From NCBI GenBank assembly GCA_029856145.1, contig JAHQWK010000001.1, positions 1-64,000 on the forward strand: a DNA stretch of 64,000 nucleotides, given 5' to 3'. The notes beneath the pieces were generated by a model. It did no database searches. It was not told the DNA's origin and saw nothing but the letters and a program-made list of their open reading frames with translations. The stretch is from Promethearchaeia archaeon (GTDB taxonomy: Archaea; Asgardarchaeota; Lokiarchaeia; Sigyniarchaeales; SOKP01). The position numbers and the translations under genes were made by a program. This document shows positions 169-8,499 of the stretch, piece by piece (positions within the stretch are counted from its first letter, which is position 1; every line of letters begins with the position of its first letter).

Positions 169-696
169 TCACCATTTTTTATTTGCATACTTCTTAACAA
201 GGTTCTTTACTTTTTTCTCAAAAAACTTTTGATTTTTCATCATTTCTATCGCGGCTTTTTTGTTAAAAACATCTGTTGGATTTACATATTTACCACGTGT
301 ATTTAACATAGCAATTATTGCTTGAACGACAGTCACTGCTGTTTTTGAAGGACTCCATCCACCTTTTTTACCAACTAATGAGGGATCTACTAAAGCAAGA
401 CAAATATTTCTCTGTCCTTTATATTCTGATGGTTTTGGCCAGAAATTTGGATGCCAAATAGGAGTATGAAATCTTACAAAAGGAGGTTTTTTAGGGTATT
501 GACCAGGGAATTTCATTTCTAATCTAAAAAGACCACCTGCATAAACAGTACCTTTAGGACCTTTAAATGAGATTGCTAGATGATCAATACTTTTCCTTTT
601 TGGATTAAATGGTTTTAATTGAACAATACTACCTTCTGTAAGCATTTTTTTTAATCCTGCAAAATCTCGGGAAATACGACTACTTCTTATACTCAT
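169..696 (-). CDS. E2 ubiquitin-conjugating (UBC) enzyme
   Basis: GPKGTVYAGGLF, FPxxYPxxPP, WHPN motif, catalytic NICL, WSPS motif. Confidence 0.95.
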   Translation of the reverse strand: MSIRSSRISRDFAGLKKMLTEGSIVQLKPFNPKRKSIDHLAISFKGPKGTVYAGGLFRLEMKFPGQYPKKPPFVRFHTPIWHPNFWPKPSEYKGQRNICLALVDPSLVGKKGGWSPSKTAVTVVQAIIAMLNTRGKYVNPTDVFNKKAAIEMMKNQKFFEKKVKNLVKKYANKKW

Positions 697-792: not shown

Positions 793-2028
793 TTATTTTA
801 ATTTTAAGGTTACAAAAATTTCACCATCTTTAAACCCCGCCGCTGTCATAAGTTCGTAATTTCTTAATCCATTTTCAATTGGATTCTTTTCTAATTCAAC
901 TATCTTAACATCATTAAAATCCAGTAAAGTTAAAATTGGCTCAGAATCTGGATCTAGTTTAAATCCATTTTTCGTTAATATTTTAATTATGTTTAGACAA
1001 GGTGATTGGGCTCTCAATTTTATTGATACTCGGCGAACTTTTTTACTACATTGAGAACAATCTGGGTTTCTTGGTTTTTCGATATGATAGAATCTCATTG
1101 TAATTGCATTATAGATCACATAATTTCTTATAGGCTCACCTAATCCTTTATGACCTTTTCTCCAATGAAGTATTTTAATTGTTTCATGTGACTGTAAAGC
1201 TGAAATAACAGCATTTATAGTTATAATGCCAGGATCATGCCTATCAATAATTTTTACAATATCATCCTCAGTATATTCAGGCAAGAAATCATGTGTATTT
1301 ACTAGCTCATTTGTAACCTTTTGAATGAATTTAATATCATTTATGTCTTTTGGATTCGGATCACGATCAAACTTTTCTTTAAATGCCATATCTCCTTTAA
1401 AAACGCAATGAATCCTTTTTCGGGGCACTCCAACTACCGTACAGGCTGCCATCTCATCACTCTCACCTACTGGTAATGGATTACATTCATAACAAGCGTT
1501 TTTGTAAGGAAATATTGTATAAACATGGCCATGATAACCGGAAACTCCACCATCTACTAATGGTTTTTTAAATCTTATACATTGTGCATTTAAATTTAGA
1601 CGAGCATTCATCGAATCAAGTCCTCCAACAACAACATCAGCAGCTTGATATAATACAGGATTCAATCGCTCTAAAGAGGTATGATATCCCTTAACTATAA
1701 TATTGGGATTAATTTCTTTGAGCTTTCTCGCCGCCACAACTGCCTTAGGTTCTCCTATCTTTGCTCCAGTAAAAAGAACTTGACGGTTTAAATTAGAATG
1801 TTCAATAATATCTAAATCAATAAGATCTAAATGACCAACACCTAACATGGCAAAATTTTTAGCAATTTCACAACCTAAACCTCCAACACCAACTATCAAC
1901 ACCCTTGAGGCCTTTACTAATTTCTGAGACCAACCTTCCAAACGAAATTGGCGGTCATACAAGCCTCTCTCTTCCGCTGATAATTCTTTTGCAAAAAAAT
2001 CTGAATCCTTATCCAATATTATCACCAT
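793..2028 (-). CDS. E1 ubiquitin-like activating enzyme (eukaryote-type, Uba2/Uba3-like with catalytic Cys)
   Basis: YDRQ, GVGGLGCE, DLDIIEHSNLNRQ, CYEC and CSQC Zn ligands, ACTVVGVPRKRIHC catalytic motif, C-terminal extension. Confidence 0.95.
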   Translation of the reverse strand: MVIILDKDSDFFAKELSAEERGLYDRQFRLEGWSQKLVKASRVLIVGVGGLGCEIAKNFAMLGVGHLDLIDLDIIEHSNLNRQVLFTGAKIGEPKAVVAARKLKEINPNIIVKGYHTSLERLNPVLYQAADVVVGGLDSMNARLNLNAQCIRFKKPLVDGGVSGYHGHVYTIFPYKNACYECNPLPVGESDEMAACTVVGVPRKRIHCVFKGDMAFKEKFDRDPNPKDINDIKFIQKVTNELVNTHDFLPEYTEDDIVKIIDRHDPGIITINAVISALQSHETIKILHWRKGHKGLGEPIRNYVIYNAITMRFYHIEKPRNPDCSQCSKKVRRVSIKLRAQSPCLNIIKILTKNGFKLDPDSEPILTLLDFNDVKIVELEKNPIENGLRNYELMTAAGFKDGEIFVTLKLK

Positions 2029-2107: not shown

Positions 2108-2440
2108 CTACCCAGCTGTACTAGCTGGGATTAAAAGAATATCATCGCCATCATTTACATCATAGTCTCTTAAATTGCTATTTTCATCCATTGTAACTCC
2201 ACCTGAAGATAAATGAAAATCATTGGGATCCAAACCATACAAGTTACCTAAGGTTTGTTTAATATCACTTACTTGATTGCTGTCATTTACAGTTAATTTT
2301 TCTTTCTTTTCCCCAGGTCCAATAGTTGACATGAAATATAAAGTCAATTTCTTTCCTCCAGCAGGAGTTTTACCAGCAGGAGTTTTAGATTTTACTGGTT
2401 CTTCTCCTCCTAAATCCTCATCAAATTCATCAAAACTCAT
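2108..2440 (-). CDS. Ubiquitin-like modifier 1 with acidic N-terminal tail, ends ...LLIPASTAG
   Basis: Beta-grasp pattern (VSDIKQTL, LRDYDVNDGDDILLI), terminal Gly, directly upstream of E1 and E2. Confidence 0.9.
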   Translation of the reverse strand: MSFDEFDEDLGGEEPVKSKTPAGKTPAGGKKLTLYFMSTIGPGEKKEKLTVNDSNQVSDIKQTLGNLYGLDPNDFHLSSGGVTMDENSNLRDYDVNDGDDILLIPASTAG

Positions 2441-2707
2441 TCACATCACTTCCAATTTTTTTTTATTTTACAATCTGTAATTTTGTTATACTTAATAAAA
2501 TGGCATTAAAAAATTATTATAAAACCCTTTGGAATGATTTTGAAGTTTTTTCAGTTATAATCAAAACCAACAGTAAGAAAATTAGGATCCTCAAGAAATT
2601 ATATTATATATTGTATGAATGCCTATCAATATATATAAGACATAATATATTGGTTTAGAGAGAATACGTAATTATAAAAACAAAAAATTTCAACCCAATT
2701 TAAATAT

Positions 2708-3385
2708 ATGCTCATGAGTTCTCTGGATAAAGCGGAATCTATTGTTCTTGAATTAGTAGAAGAGTATTTGACGAAAAAAACCTTCTTCTCAATTAGAGAA
2801 ATTACATCATATATAAGTAATAGGGTGAGATACAATCCTAATATAAATGAGAATAGAATAGAGTTAATCTTAAAGGAATTAATTAAAAGAAGAATTATTA
2901 TTCCAGGAACTCGATTAATGAAAAATAATATTGTTGAACATCCAAAAAGAAATGAAATTTTTAATTATATTAAAAAGAATCCCTCAAATATTAATGAAAT
3001 AATGAGAGCTCTAAACATTGGTAGTAATCAAGCATTATGGCATTTATCATGTTTAGAAAAATTCAAATTCATTAGATCAAAACAACTCAACAATCATAAA
3101 TTTTTCTTCAAATTTGACTCTAACCCAAAACTTGATCCATTATACTTTTATTTGAAAAAAGAGATCGTTCAAAAAATAATTAATTTTATAAAAAACAAAA
3201 ATAAAGCATTTAAAATTACAGAAATAGCAACTGGTTTAAAAAAAAATCATAGTACTATTAAAAAATATTTAGATATTCTAAATGATCTGGAATTAATAAA
3301 CATTGAAAAAGAAAAAAATAGAAACATATTCAAATTAGATTTCGAGAAATATTCTAAGGCTAGAAAATCAATAGAAGGTGCATGA
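2708..3385 (+). CDS. Multi winged-helix (ArsR/HTH-like) protein, probable transcriptional regulator
   Basis: HPKRNEIFNYIKKNP..INEIMRAL..ALWHLSCLE and KITEIATGLKKNHSTIKKYLDIL wHTH repeats plus an N-terminal wHTH-like segment. Confidence 0.75.
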   Translation: MLMSSLDKAESIVLELVEEYLTKKTFFSIREITSYISNRVRYNPNINENRIELILKELIKRRIIIPGTRLMKNNIVEHPKRNEIFNYIKKNPSNINEIMRALNIGSNQALWHLSCLEKFKFIRSKQLNNHKFFFKFDSNPKLDPLYFYLKKEIVQKIINFIKNKNKAFKITEIATGLKKNHSTIKKYLDILNDLELINIEKEKNRNIFKLDFEKYSKARKSIEGA

Positions 3386-3470
3386 AATTGAAAACTCCAA
3401 TTTTATTCCAATCCCATTTAAATTTTAGATTATATATTTTAAATTCAGAAAATAATCTAATCAAAAAATC

Positions 3471-4265
3471 ATGAAAAAGAATTATAGAATTTTAATTGTT
3501 ATTGCTCTTTACACTGTTTGTATATTGTTCTATGTATTTTTTTTCCTATTTCGTATACAAAATACTCCCTTCTTTCTTTTTCTAACTATTGGTAGTGTTG
3601 CAGTATTATCAACTAGTACCATTTATACAGTTATACAGTCTAAAAGCAGTCAAGATAAGAGGTTAAAAGAAAAAAAATCTTTTGCAAAACCAAAGTCAAT
3701 TCAAACGGAAACTATCGATATGATTGAAGATTATATTGATGCAATGCCTTCAATAGAAGAATATATTGAATCAGATGAGTCATATAAGGATATGCCTATA
3801 ATTGATAAATACATTTTTTCAATCTTTAGTAAAGACGAATTAGATAAAATAGACCTTTTAGAGTTACCGAAAATGGATAAGATTTTATTCATCCGAGAAA
3901 TGCTATATTACGATCCAAATGAGAGAAAGGCGTTAATCGAAAATATGCTGAAAAACAAGGATAAAACTGATGGAGAAATAATTTATACACCACCTATGAA
4001 TCCCATTGAAATGGAAGACCAGATCCGTGTTTATGTAAGATCATTACTTGAGCCTGGTGAGAAAACGAAAATAATTATTGTTGATATGACTGATTTCATC
4101 GGGATAACTAAGGATAAAATTGCAGTATTATTTGATTATGATCTAGAAGATTTTCTCATATCTAGCGGAGGGATATTGCTAAAAGAGAACTTACTAATAA
4201 AAGATTATGATATCGATGATGATGATGAAATCGCTCTAATCCCCTCAAGAAAAGAAAAAAATTAA
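3471..4265 (+). CDS. Membrane protein: two N-terminal TM helices, acidic helical linker, C-terminal Ubl domain without terminal Gly
   Basis: Hydrophobic residues 7-55; C-terminal ~80 aa align with both Ubls (PGEK, DFxxSSGG, DYDxxDxDxIxLIP). Confidence 0.85.
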   Translation: MKKNYRILIVIALYTVCILFYVFFFLFRIQNTPFFLFLTIGSVAVLSTSTIYTVIQSKSSQDKRLKEKKSFAKPKSIQTETIDMIEDYIDAMPSIEEYIESDESYKDMPIIDKYIFSIFSKDELDKIDLLELPKMDKILFIREMLYYDPNERKALIENMLKNKDKTDGEIIYTPPMNPIEMEDQIRVYVRSLLEPGEKTKIIIVDMTDFIGITKDKIAVLFDYDLEDFLISSGGILLKENLLIKDYDIDDDDEIALIPSRKEKN

Positions 4266-4282
4266 AAAAAGAACCTAATTTT

Positions 4283-4696
4283 TTAACCAGCTATACTTGC
4301 TGGAATTAAAAGTATGTCATCTCCGTCAGAAACATTATAATAGGTTAATGAGTTAGTTTCATCCATAGTTACACCACCAGATGATAAGTAAAAGTCAGCA
4401 GGATCTAAACCAAATAAATTGGCTATAGTTTCTTTTATATCTCCAACAAGGTTCCCATCATTAATAGTTAATTTTTGTTTTTTCTCACCTGGACCGATAG
4501 TAGACATAAAAAATACCGAAATCTTCTTCCCCCCAGTAACAACCTTTGTAGTAGGAGTTTTAGATTCAACTTCATCCTCAGGAATCTTTGCTAAAGTTTC
4601 TTCTATTCCATCTTCATATTTCTCTTCAAATTCTTCATCTAAATCTTCCAAATCTTCATCAAATTCTTGTTCATTAAACTCATCATCAAAACCCAT
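4283..4696 (-). CDS. Ubiquitin-like modifier 2 with long acidic N-terminal tail, ends ...LLIPASIAG
   Basis: Close paralog of 2108..2440 (FMSTIGPGEKK, LSSGGVTMDE, DGDDILLIPAS). Confidence 0.9.
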   Translation of the reverse strand: MGFDDEFNEQEFDEDLEDLDEEFEEKYEDGIEETLAKIPEDEVESKTPTTKVVTGGKKISVFFMSTIGPGEKKQKLTINDGNLVGDIKETIANLFGLDPADFYLSSGGVTMDETNSLTYYNVSDGDDILLIPASIAG

Positions 4697-4904
4697 AAAA
4701 TAAACCTCAATAAGTTAGATAAATTTTTTTAAAATATATTTTTGTCAAATCTTTTACTATAATTATATGAAAATAATAGAAACTAAGTTATATAAATAGA
4801 TTTAACAAAAAGAAAATTTAATAATTTTAGCTTTGTTTTGCAAACACTTTAGAGTCAATATTCATATGAATTTATTAATAGAGTAAGTTTAAAATTGAAA
4901 CATT

Positions 4905-6062
4905 ATGAATGATAAGCCTATTCCCAAGTATCAAATTCGAGAAAAAACTCCAGATGAAGAACTAGACACAATTCCAGAAAAAAAATTACTGAAAAAAATA
5001 AAAAAAGAAAGAATTAAGTTAGATAAAGAAAAAAGCGAATGGGAAAAAGTTATTAATCAAATTGAGGATTACAAAGAAAATATCGAAGACCTTGAAAAGA
5101 AAAGGAAAGAAAAAGAACTTAAAATTAAATTTCTTCTAGAACAACGAAATAACTTGAAAGAGGAGCTAGAGAGAACGAAAAATCAAATAGAGCAACAAAA
5201 AAATGAATTAGATGCTAAAGAACGGCGATTTAGAGAAAAAATTAAAAGTAAGAATGAAGAATTAAATCAAAAAAATACTGAATTAGAGAGGTTTCAAGAA
5301 AAATTAGATAAATTAAGAGAAGATATTGCTACTCAAAAAAAGAATTTAGATTGGGAAAAAGAAAGAACGGAAAAACGAATAAAGGAAATTAAAACGAAAA
5401 TTCCCGGAATGGAAAGAAGAGAAAATGCCTTAGAAAGAACTATTAATGATTTAGAAAATAATTTAATGGATTTAAGAAATGAAATTAAATATTTAACTAA
5501 AGAAAGGGATAATCTAAATAGGGAAATTAATAACTTAAGGAGAGAGATAACTGACGAAAAAAATCGAATTTCTGATGAAAAACAAAAACTTAAAGAAGAA
5601 AGAGAAAAAACGCGTTATAAAAAGCAAGATTTAGATCTTAGAACTCGTGAACTCGATAAGAAAAGAACAGATCTAAAAAAGTATAGATATAAAGCAGAAA
5701 AGGATGTAAATAATTTAGAAAAAAGAAGACGACAACAAGAAGCGAGATTTAAAGAATTAAAAAGAAAAGTTCCTGCTGCAGAGAAGAAGTTTCACTCCTT
5801 AAATAACAAAATTCCGAATTTAGAGGAAAAATTTAGAAAATTGAATAATGAATATAGACAATTAGAAAAAGAAAAAACAAACTTAGAAAGGGAAAAAAGT
5901 ACTATTAAACGTGAAAGAGAAAAACTAGAAAAGGATAAACAAAGATTTCTAAATGAAAAAAGAGAATTTGAAAGAGAACTAAGAAGGATTAAATCTAAAA
6001 CTCCTTCAATTAAAACAAAGACTCCTTCACATATTAAAACGAAAACTCCCTCAAAATATTAA
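4905..6062 (+). CDS. Long coiled-coil protein with C-terminal KTPS repeats
   Basis: ~330 aa of K/E/R/L heptad-rich sequence; tail IKSKTPSIKTKTPSHIKTKTPSKY. Confidence 0.85.
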   Translation: MNDKPIPKYQIREKTPDEELDTIPEKKLLKKIKKERIKLDKEKSEWEKVINQIEDYKENIEDLEKKRKEKELKIKFLLEQRNNLKEELERTKNQIEQQKNELDAKERRFREKIKSKNEELNQKNTELERFQEKLDKLREDIATQKKNLDWEKERTEKRIKEIKTKIPGMERRENALERTINDLENNLMDLRNEIKYLTKERDNLNREINNLRREITDEKNRISDEKQKLKEEREKTRYKKQDLDLRTRELDKKRTDLKKYRYKAEKDVNNLEKRRRQQEARFKELKRKVPAAEKKFHSLNNKIPNLEEKFRKLNNEYRQLEKEKTNLEREKSTIKREREKLEKDKQRFLNEKREFERELRRIKSKTPSIKTKTPSHIKTKTPSKY

Positions 6063-6073
6063 TTACTAATATT

Positions 6074-7120
6074 GTGAAATTCATGAGGATTGTTGATCCA
6101 ACTGAAGGAGATTATATAGAAACAAAAAAAGAAAACCTGTTTTTTGATGTAAAAGGTCTTCTCCATCCAAATGATTATATCATATGCTTTTTACGATTTT
6201 TTCCTCATCCAAACGGAGAAAGAAAAAAAAATGGAATCGTCTTTAAAAAAATTTACAAATTAAACGAAAGATATGACCTTTTGAGAAAAAATTATCCCAA
6301 ATATCTTTTCTTTTCTGAAGAACTAGATTTAGAGGTTCAAGGAGTTAAAAAAGATGAAATTAAAAAAATTTATACTCCTAGATGCTTCTTTGAAGATTTA
6401 TTAAAAACCCCCCAGTTATCCAGTAGTGAAAAACGTTCTAAGAGCTTATGTGAATTATTTATTACTGAGGGAAATCTTTCTGAGAATTCAATAGGTATTA
6501 CAGGATCAATAATGGTGGGATTAAATACTGAAGATTCTGATATTGATCTAGTAATATATGGTACAGAAACAAGTATAAAATTTCAAAAGAAATTGAAAAA
6601 AATATTTAAAAAGTCAGATGATTGTCGGAAATATACTATGGATGAATATAGAACCCATTATGATTGGAGAGCTAGTGGTTCCAATATTCCATTTGAAGAT
6701 TTTCTTAAAAGTGAGGAACGGAAACAGCATCAAGGGAAATTTTTAGGTCATGACTTCTTTATTAGATATATTAAAAGTCCTAAAGATTGGAAAGGGAATT
6801 TTTATGATTATCAATATAAAAATGTTGGAAGAATTAAACTTAAAGTAGACATCATAGATTCAAAAGATTCTATTTTTACCCCTTGTTCATATAAAATAAA
6901 TCCTATAAAAATTCTCAAAAGTGATATTAAACCAAATACTGTTAATATAAAAGACATAAATGAAATAAACTCGTTCAGAGGACGTTTTTGTGAGCAGGCT
7001 AGAAAGGGTGAAAAGGTATTTGTCGAAGGAAAATTAGAAAAAGTAAATTTTAAGAATGAATTAGAATATTTTAGGATTTTATTAAGTGATCCTATTAATG
7101 ATAAAATGATTATTATTTAA
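6074..7120 (+). CDS. Predicted archaeal nucleotidyltransferase (Pol-beta superfamily, COG1665-like)
   Basis: GITGSxxxG...SDIDLVIYG motif. Confidence 0.8.
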   Translation: MKFMRIVDPTEGDYIETKKENLFFDVKGLLHPNDYIICFLRFFPHPNGERKKNGIVFKKIYKLNERYDLLRKNYPKYLFFSEELDLEVQGVKKDEIKKIYTPRCFFEDLLKTPQLSSSEKRSKSLCELFITEGNLSENSIGITGSIMVGLNTEDSDIDLVIYGTETSIKFQKKLKKIFKKSDDCRKYTMDEYRTHYDWRASGSNIPFEDFLKSEERKQHQGKFLGHDFFIRYIKSPKDWKGNFYDYQYKNVGRIKLKVDIIDSKDSIFTPCSYKINPIKILKSDIKPNTVNIKDINEINSFRGRFCEQARKGEKVFVEGKLEKVNFKNELEYFRILLSDPINDKMIII

Positions 7121-7188: not shown

Positions 7189-8499
7189 ATGGATATTTAT
7201 AACGCAGATTTACATATACATTCTCCGCATTCAATAGGAGTATCGAAATCATTGAATCTTGACACGATGATCGATACATGTAAAAAAAAGGGTTTAAACA
7301 TTTTAGGGACTGGAGATGTCTTACAACCAGAGTGGTTAAAATATTTAGAAGAAAAATTAGAGAAAGATAAAGATGGAGCCTATTATTATAAGGAAATTTA
7401 TTTTATCCTTCAAACTGAAATAGAAGATCAAGAAAGTGTACATGAAGTTGTCTTTTTCGAAGATTTCGATATGGTAAGAAATATTCAAAATAAACTCGAA
7501 CCTTACTCAAAAAATATTTTAAATGAATGGGGTGGGCGCCCAAGAGTTAATCTATCCCCCGCAGAATTAGCTGATGTTATCTCAGATGAGGGTGCTTTAA
7601 TTGGACCTGCTCATGCCTTCACACCTTTTAAAGCTATTTTTCGACAAAATAAATTTGAAACGCTTGAAGAATGTTATGGTGATGCTACAAAGAAAATTAA
7701 TTTCATTGAATTAGGGCTTTCTGCTAACACTGATCTTGCAGATAGATTAGAATGTTTAAAAGATATTGCTTTTCTGAGCAACAGCGATGCCCATTCACAA
7801 AATCCTCGTTCTTTAGGAAGAGAGTTCAATAAATTCGATATTGATAATCCCTCTTTTAATGAAATTTTGCAGGCAATTCAAAGGAAAAATGGAAGAAAAA
7901 TAGCTTTAAATGTAGGTTTAAATCCAAAACTAGGAAAATATTATGTAATGTTCTGTAATAAATGTAGAAGAAGGATAATATTTAAGAAAGTGAAAAAGCA
8001 AGTAAATACAATCTTTAATCAATATTCAATAACAGATAATTTTGTTATCTATTATACAAGTGATCCTAAATCCTCAAGGTTAGACTATTTAGAACAAGTT
8101 TCTAAAAATAAGATGAGCTGTCCAGCATGTAAAGAACAGTTAAATAAAAATTTTAAAGTTAAATTAGGAGTAAGTGAAAGAATTGAAAAAATTTCTACAT
8201 TTATAGAACCTAAACATCCAAATCATAGACCTCCATATGTCAATGCCGTACCATTGATTGAAATTATTCGAGCTGTAAAAGGTATTAAAAGTACAACTAG
8301 TAAAACAGTTTTAAATGAATACAATAGACTAATTCAAGAACTTGGGACTGAATATGAGATATTATTAGATCTTCCTATTACTAAAATTGAGGATTTTGAT
8401 AATAATATAGCCTTAGTTATAAATACCCTTAGAAATAATGAGGTGGAATATACTCCTGGAGGAGGAGGTACTTACGGGCATATAAATATTGATGTCTAA
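7189..8499 (+). CDS. Endonuclease Q family PHP protein with Zn ribbon (TIGR00375-like)
   Basis: ADLHIHS, GTGD, PAHAFTP, ELGLSA, SNSDAHS, LGRE, CNKC/CPAC, PGGGGTYG. Confidence 0.85.
   Translation: MDIYNADLHIHSPHSIGVSKSLNLDTMIDTCKKKGLNILGTGDVLQPEWLKYLEEKLEKDKDGAYYYKEIYFILQTEIEDQESVHEVVFFEDFDMVRNIQNKLEPYSKNILNEWGGRPRVNLSPAELADVISDEGALIGPAHAFTPFKAIFRQNKFETLEECYGDATKKINFIELGLSANTDLADRLECLKDIAFLSNSDAHSQNPRSLGREFNKFDIDNPSFNEILQAIQRKNGRKIALNVGLNPKLGKYYVMFCNKCRRRIIFKKVKKQVNTIFNQYSITDNFVIYYTSDPKSSRLDYLEQVSKNKMSCPACKEQLNKNFKVKLGVSERIEKISTFIEPKHPNHRPPYVNAVPLIEIIRAVKGIKSTTSKTVLNEYNRLIQELGTEYEILLDLPITKIEDFDNNIALVINTLRNNEVEYTPGGGGTYGHINIDV

Follow-up and report, generated by a model that had tools for sequence, protein, structure and literature searches.

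A lysine-centred KTP motif shared by ubiquitin-like modifier tails and a coiled-coil protein in an Asgard archaeal conjugation locus

The first 64,000 nucleotides of contig JAHQWK010000001.1 (assembly GCA_029856145.1, forward strand; contig C9 in our numbering and hereafter the window) from a Promethearchaeia archaeon of the Sigyniarchaeales contain a predicted locus for ubiquitin-like conjugation, which comprises E1 and E2 enzymes, a JAMM protease, two ubiquitin-like modifiers (Ubl1 and Ubl2) and a coiled-coil protein (CC). Here we describe a short motif, [IV]-x-[ST]-K-T-P, which recurs in the N-terminal tails of both modifiers and at both ends of CC, and which is close to certain to be a functional short linear motif. 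Its lysine may be the site at which the modifier is attached.

Results

Conservation of the motif across relatives

Of 40 relatives searched, 33 yielded the Ubl, among them every one of the 24 same-genus genomes. All the same-genus and other-family loci among the 39 related loci that were compared carry the motif, several of the genomes being incomplete. The consensus over these loci consists of [IV] at position -3, any residue at -2, [ST] at -1 (Glu in the N-terminal copy of CC), and then K, T and P. In an alignment of 48 Ubls from four families (alignment A1), K19 and P21 never vary, and conservation is at least 90% at S18 and T20; the tail is otherwise variable, except for a second conserved element, FDEDL. 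The CC proteins share only 27-37% identity between families, yet among 31 of them K14 and P16 belong to the seven invariant columns, and at least 90% conservation is seen at I11 and T15 as well as at I377, K380 and P382 in the C-terminal tail. KTP is encoded by 20 different codon combinations, which indicates that selection acts on the protein and not on the DNA; a nucleotide-level element is ruled out by the same count.

The lysine is strictly specified. The tails contain 187 instances of [ST]KxP and none of [ST]RxP, although position -2 swaps freely between Lys and Arg (55 versus 36 in CC) and 27% of the basic residues at the two ends of CC are Arg. The +1 position is Thr in 196 cases, Ile or Val in 23 and Ser in five. 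The first-pass annotation of this DNA had proposed that the (S/T)KTP strings form a short linear motif, which marks either an acceptor lysine or a Pro-directed phosphorylation site. The short linear motif is borne out, since the lysine and the proline are invariant across genera and families, the tails are predicted to be disordered, and selection is on the protein; the phosphorylation alternative fared poorly, as discussed below.

Rarity and enrichment of the motif

The rarity of the motif was scanned in approximately 3,300 crudely called open reading frames (ORFs) of this genome (3.55 Mb, 30% GC), which amount to approximately 1.04 million residues. [ST]KTP occurs at 21 sites genome-wide, nine of which are in CC, Ubl2, Ubl1 and two Ubl1 paralogs on contigs C26 and C28; the longer [IV]x[ST]KTP occurs at 11 sites, seven of them in CC and the four Ubl paralogs. 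Outside the Ubl and CC proteins, [IV]xxKTP is found at 31 sites against a mean shuffle expectation of 25.6, and its carriers are ordinary enzymes, such as a radical SAM protein, an ABC ATPase, a CoA transferase and OST3. The pattern in the Ubl and CC proteins is well beyond chance.

Enrichment in homologous loci had been suggested in the first-pass annotation as a way of checking the motif, and it amounts to approximately 70-fold over the neighbouring ORFs: across the 39 related loci, the Ubl and CC proteins contain 176 KTP in 20,656 residues and all other ORFs contain 13 in 109,588 residues, with five of these 13 in a piece of CC truncated at the end of a contig. The copies are not independent, since the Ubls are paralogous to one another and the CC tail repeats in tandem, and because the relatives are kin, the counts overstate independence; the weight therefore rests on the cross-family conservation rather than on raw counts. 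The best-looking outside carrier, VESKTP in a 356-residue zinc-ribbon protein (L060), was rejected, since none of its orthologs has the motif at this position; it is the single outside instance that was tested.

Motif copies in the window and the coiled-coil protein

The (S/T)KTP strings that the first-pass annotation quoted for Ubl1, Ubl2 and the CC tail are all present where it had placed them. CC has two further copies, at its N terminus and at an internal position (Table 1). In orthologs, the upstream copy of Ubl2 reads SSKTP, SKAP or EKIP, the internal CC copy is kept within the genus as IKTK[IL]PGMERR, and the number of C-terminal CC copies varies from one to three.

Table 1. Conjugation genes and motif copies at the start of the window.
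Feature	Positions	Strand	Evidence
JAMM/MPN protease gene, N-terminal fragment cut by the contig start	3..200	-	Translation matches the N terminus of the 270-residue C28 paralog
E2, UBC fold, with inserts around the catalytic Cys	169..696	-	Pfam UQ_con, 1.1e-25
E1, ThiF family	793..2028	-	Pfam ThiF, 1.8e-60
Ubl1, ubiquitin-fold modifier with Ala-Gly end and disordered N-tail of ~30 residues	2108..2440	-	Pfam ubiquitin PF00240, 2.7e-07
Ubl1 tail motifs VKSKTP (2378-2395) and PAGKTP (2363-2380); candidate acceptors K19 and K24	2363..2395	-	K19/P21 invariant in 48 Ubls
Double winged-helix protein	2708-3385	+	
Membrane-anchored Ubl copy without Ala-Gly end or motif; negative comparator	3471..4265	+	Pfam ubiquitin at residues 189-256
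Ubl2, paralogous modifier with Ala-Gly end and longer acidic tail	4283..4696	-	Pfam ubiquitin; aligned in A1
Ubl2 tail motifs VESKTP (4553-4570) and degenerate upstream TLAKIP (4580-4597)	4553..4597	-	
Coiled-coil protein (CC), 385 residues, divergent from Ubl2	4905..6062	+	AF2 helices; synteny
CC N-terminal motif IREKTP, residues 11-16	4935..4952	+	K14/P16 invariant in 31 CC orthologs
CC internal degenerate motif IKTKIP, residues 162-167, at the sole predicted helix break	5388..5405	+	AF2 break at residues 163-171
CC C-terminal tail, three tandem I-K-[ST]-K-T-P copies (IKSKTP, IKTKTP, IKTKTP)	5988..6050	+	

The AlphaFold2 (AF2) model of CC contains two helices (residues 25-162 and 172-364) with both ends disordered and a lone break that falls on the internal IKTKIPG; its predicted TM-score is 0.27, at which the packing of the helices is not trustworthy. 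The C-terminal tail has a net charge of +8. Two more K-[VI]-P sites, LKRKVP and LNNKIP (5757-5774 and 5799-5816, + strand), are located in helix 2, where they are conserved within the genus and predicted to be helical. Pfam gives only sub-threshold coiled-coil matches for CC, and the protein atlas gives only generic coiled-coil neighbours with scores of at most 0.84.

All 24 same-genus loci keep CC in synteny, and in other families it adjoins a Ubl gene. In five genomes of the order without the Ubl, a sample in which several genomes are incomplete, no CC whose ends carry KTP was found; what matches the CC alignment best in these genomes are unrelated coiled-coil and zinc-ribbon proteins without KTP, and their E2 matches score far below the expectation for orthologs.

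The modifiers, their tails and their C-terminal ends

Residues 31-105 of the Ubl1 AF2 model form a beta-grasp fold, with a core predicted local distance difference test (pLDDT) of approximately 90, and residues 1-30 are without structure, with pLDDT below 50 at residues 4-6 and 11-26. The tails are thus predicted to be disordered and would be accessible. Binding of the Ubl1 tail to its own beta-grasp was considered and set aside, as AF2 leaves residues 1-30 unstructured. Foldseek aligns the model with archaeal and eukaryotic ubiquitin, NEDD8, ISG15 and SUMO1 at target-normalised TM-scores of 0.78-0.91, the best match being Caldiarchaeum ubiquitin. In a search for close homologs of Ubl1, all the matches listed are at least 84% identical and add no diversity.

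All the 48 aligned Ubls end in A-[ST]-x-A-G, some with zero to five extra residues, so that a single Gly after Ala takes the place of a C-terminal Gly-Gly. Across loci L040 and L043-L051 the ends are mostly exactly Ala-Gly, and some have one to five additional residues (AGM, AGR, AGK, AGKCIC, AGIITYRK), which suggests that some paralogs need processing and others do not. The presence of the motif goes together with this end. The motif occurs in 47 of the 48 Ubls with an Ala-Gly end. The membrane-anchored Ubl lacks such an end, and neither KTP nor [ST]KxP occurs in any of 23 sequences orthologous to it.

Ubl fusions that end in Ala-Gly carry the motif as well. A fusion of approximately 274 residues (L054-L057; for example L054:6009-6833, - strand) has IRTKTP...I[KQ][SA]KTP directly before a Ubl domain that ends in SSTAG; it is found in same-genus genomes at positions away from the operon and is absent from the present genome. 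A protein of approximately 585 residues (L045:9691-11448, - strand; L058:2213-3964, + strand) combines a CDC48_N-like region, a VWA domain, two KTP and a Ubl whose end is STAG plus a short extension.

The two modifiers are strongly acidic (net charge approximately -10 for Ubl1 and -24 for Ubl2), and the motif segment of Ubl1, which follows an acidic stretch, has a charge of +5. Upstream of KTP, the second tail element has an acidic F-D-E-D-L core (2396-2440 and 4598-4696, both - strand). L10 of this element is invariant among the 48 Ubls of A1, with D7 and E8 at least 90% conserved, and Ubl2 repeats it many times (EFDEEFDEEFDEQEFDEDL). It could be a docking motif in its own right, to which the strongly basic E2, for instance, might bind.

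The Ubl family beyond the order

A profile search over 1.84 billion cluster representatives recovered the same Ubl family outside the order, marked by a STIGPGE core and an IP[AS]STAG end. These distant members, some of which are labelled Hodarchaeales or Helarchaeota, carry I-x-S-K-T-P or a degenerate [ST]-K-x-P approximately 10-15 residues before strand 1. The Hodarchaeales and Helarchaeota loci read Ubl-E1-E2-JAMM, and no CC neighbour was found in them; among the lineages sampled, CC is restricted to the Loki-type order. Since the Ubls of lineages without CC keep the motif, it is ancestral to the Ubl, and CC copies it.

Metagenomic tandem poly-Ubl precursors were also recovered: P0121 (372 residues; L099:59-1177) contains three units and P0122 (250 residues) contains two, each unit with an acidic tail, I-K-S-K-T-P and an IPHSTAG end. 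By analogy with polyubiquitin, they would require cleavage after Ala-Gly. As every unit comes with an acidic KTP tail of its own, the tail is probably part of the mature modifier.

The E2 enzyme

The E2 has a net charge of +26 over 175 residues, and its closest solved matches are of the Ubc15, Ubc13, UBE2T and Cdc34 types. Approximately four extra residues separate HPN from the catalytic Cys, and a basic insert (...PSLVGKKGG...) follows the Cys; both inserts are nearly invariant over four families (alignment A3, 88% mean column identity). A complex prediction between the E2 (A3) and the last 40 residues of CC (alignment A2) gave a score of 0.02, which counts neither for nor against binding.

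Locus organisation and gene order

The proteins of the window have close relatives labelled Promethearchaeota, Lokiarchaeota and other Asgard metagenome-assembled genomes in public sources. The genes for the ThiF-type E1 and the UQ_con E2 are adjacent in the window and in relatives. Within the genus, the gene order nucleotidyltransferase-CC-Ubl2-membrane Ubl-helix-turn-helix protein-Ubl1-E1-E2 is kept. The core in three further families of the order consists of CC adjoining Ubl-E1-E2-JAMM-membrane protein, and in one family CC adjoins the VWA-Ubl fusion instead. The nucleotidyltransferase-domain protein (6074-7120, + strand) is directly 3´ of CC in the window and follows CC in 23 of 24 same-genus loci, the contig of the 24th stopping inside CC; it is not downstream of CC in the other families. 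A PHP-like protein (7189-8499, + strand) comes after it in the window.

The JAMM/Rpn11-like protease of the operon matches Pfam JAB (PF01398) at 3.5e-14 and 1.2e-17, the latter value for the 270-residue paralog on C28, and the distant loci have a JAMM gene too. The genes membrane protein-JAMM-E2-E1-Ubl1 occur a second time in C28:72000-79315 (L066), where the Ubl is 93% identical to Ubl1 of the window, and C28 ends 29 bases beyond this Ubl; a lone third Ubl1 paralog is located at C26:60437-60769. C9 starts inside the JAMM gene, which indicates that the assembly broke in the operon repeat. Both C9 and C28 break inside the repeated region, so that the operon copies counted and the part of the C9 operon described are those that the assembly shows.

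A membrane protein of approximately 390 residues follows the JAMM gene (L066:2966-4129, - strand; L045-L052 and L111) and is found there in lineages as remote as Helarchaeota. Pfam gives no match for it in this genome and only a sub-threshold one in a relative. No RING E3 was found in the operon by Pfam, and none was seen in the related loci; the membrane protein may be the missing E3 or a receptor of the system.

Discussion

Among the functions that such a motif could have, we place first that of a SUMO-style acceptor, in which the E2 of the operon reads the motif lysine, the Ubl tail is a site for chain building, and CC is a dedicated substrate. We put this forward tentatively, as plausible but short of probable. 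It is ranked first because it alone explains jointly that Lys is absolutely required, that the motif lies on the flexible tail of the modifier, that only conjugatable Ubls carry it and that the operon has no RING E3. The very basic E2, once charged with a very acidic Ubl, would recognise the motif lysine with no separate E3, and the charges are compatible with attraction of the basic KTP tails to a charged E2~Ubl. The motif on the Ubl tail would permit chains to be built as on Lys11 of SUMO2/3 and Lys11/15/19 of Smt3, the motif copies on CC would turn its two ends, and perhaps its hinge, into sites dedicated to attachment, and the JAMM protease would reverse the modification.

Several points weigh against this interpretation. 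What we observe is the motif with its conservation, its disordered setting and its link to conjugatable Ubls, and from this we infer both the modification of the lysine and the role of the E2 as its reader. The last KTP stands approximately 9-12 residues before strand 1 of the Ubl, a fairly constant distance that an acceptor does not need but that an element for positioning or docking might. Pure docking motifs can also show strict conservation of Lys. The Ubls of Hodarchaeales and Helarchaeota keep the motif without CC, so that its primary role is intrinsic to the Ubl system and need not be to mark substrates. The invariant lysines of the Ubl core (K45, K46, K48 and K61) could serve for chains instead, and the E2 is not specifically Ubc9-like. 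We regard as possible, with some reserve, the more general proposal that [IV]-x-[ST]-K-T-P is an E3-independent, consensus-directed conjugation code of Asgard archaea, which the E2 reads on the modifier tail for chains and on a dedicated CC substrate.

The motif could alternatively be a non-covalent docking site, through which a shared reader (the E1, the E2, the JAMM protease or the membrane protein of approximately 390 residues) binds the Ubl tail, with CC as a multivalent scaffold, a competitor or an E3-like adaptor. We rank this second; it is somewhat unlikely taken alone, but nearly as likely as an acceptor lysine. The conservation and the disorder fit docking equally well, the near-constant spacing to strand 1 and the existence of the motif in Ubl subfamilies without CC agree with it, the tandem copies suggest avidity, and an element for docking to E1 or E2 would likewise be expected to go with conjugatable Ubls. 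However, the complete absence of Arg at the lysine position, when Lys and Arg swap only two residues away, is more typical of a chemically required Lys, and no candidate reader domain is known; the Ubl core would be an unlikely reader, given that the tail does not fold back on the beta-grasp in the model. A different modification that co-regulates the modifier and CC, whether Pro-directed phosphorylation, on the Thr or on the -1 Ser/Thr, or methylation or acetylation of the Lys, is improbable. Thr-Pro is formally a Pro-directed site, the CC copies read T-P-S-K, Ser/Thr is strongly preferred at -1, and a Lys-specific invariance would also suit methylation or acetylation. Yet Ile or Val takes the place of the Thr more often than Ser does, whereas a phospho-acceptor should show the reverse, and in the best-conserved copy of CC the -1 residue is Glu. 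The neighbours that the loci of different families have in common include no kinase, phosphatase or methyltransferase, a genome-wide search for kinases not having been made, and CMGC-type Pro-directed kinases are eukaryotic. Pro-directed phosphorylation, which the first-pass annotation offered as its alternative, is thus disfavoured, as Ser and Thr are not interchangeable before Pro and the locus has no conserved kinase.

Even less probable is that the tails are merely basic and rich in Lys, Thr and Pro, of the histone H1/SPKK type, and bind nucleic acid, the acidic Ubl tails or other polyanions without any residue-specific code. The charge of the CC C-terminal tail and its resemblance to S/T-P-x-K repeats would suit such a role, as would the basic motif segment that follows an acidic stretch in Ubl1. 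In contrast, the most conserved copy, at the CC N terminus, runs into acidic residues (KTPDEE), copies in other families lie in non-basic contexts such as IASKTPNVAQAP, and the position-specific invariance of I, K, T and P with no Arg does not match pure electrostatics. Chance, low-complexity convergence or a nucleotide-level repeat, in each case without a common function, can very nearly be dismissed: the tandem repeat in the CC tail and the paralogy of the Ubls do inflate the raw counts, but the motif is invariant over four families while its flanks diverge, the diversity of codons and the enrichment over neighbouring ORFs are unexpected for such an origin, and the orthologs of the control protein from another part of the genome (L060) do not keep its copy.

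In the literature that we found, no natural substrate or attachment code is described for the E1/E2 Ubl systems of Asgard or other archaea, and searches on the motif and on Asgard Ubl acceptor sites returned nothing relevant. If the lysine is an acceptor, consensus-site targeting and tail-mediated chains are not eukaryotic inventions, and a SUMO-like logic predates eukaryotes; CC would then be the first natural substrate named for an archaeal E1/E2 system and a first handle on its cellular role. If the motif is a docking site instead, it still points to a physical partner of the modifier.

One of the closest known parallels is the SUMO system. The E2 Ubc9 directly reads the psi-K-x-[D/E] consensus, and SUMO chains form through consensus lysines in the flexible N-terminal tail, Lys11 in SUMO2/3 and Lys11/15/19 in yeast Smt3. 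Here as well, a Lys-centred motif lies in disordered regions, both in the N-terminal tail of a modifier before its beta-grasp, where it is sometimes repeated, and in other proteins, and in principle no E3 is needed. The two consensus sequences differ: SUMO sites have psi at -1 and an acidic residue at +2, whereas the present motif has a hydrophobic residue at -3, Ser/Thr at -1 and Thr-Pro at +1/+2. In addition, the E2 is not of the Ubc9 kind, and the modifier ends in Ala-Gly rather than Gly-Gly.

The operon of Caldiarchaeum subterraneum encodes ubiquitin, E1, E2, a small RING E3 and an Rpn11-like JAMM protease (PMC5654768, PMC6043591). Both operons hold E1, E2 and JAMM genes, and the fold of Ubl1 is closest to the Caldiarchaeum ubiquitin. 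Unlike that operon, the present one has no RING E3 that we could find and has a conserved membrane protein after the JAMM gene, and its Ubls have long acidic tails with KTP and Ala-Gly ends. No acceptor consensus for the Caldiarchaeum system is described in the literature found.

The chain-building E2s of the Cdc34/UBE2R, UBE2G and Ubc15 types are among the best sequence matches of the present E2, which has inserts on both sides of its catalytic Cys. In contrast to the acidic active-site insert of such enzymes, the insert here is basic (...GKKGG...), as is the enzyme as a whole, and it may have a role in the choice of the acceptor.

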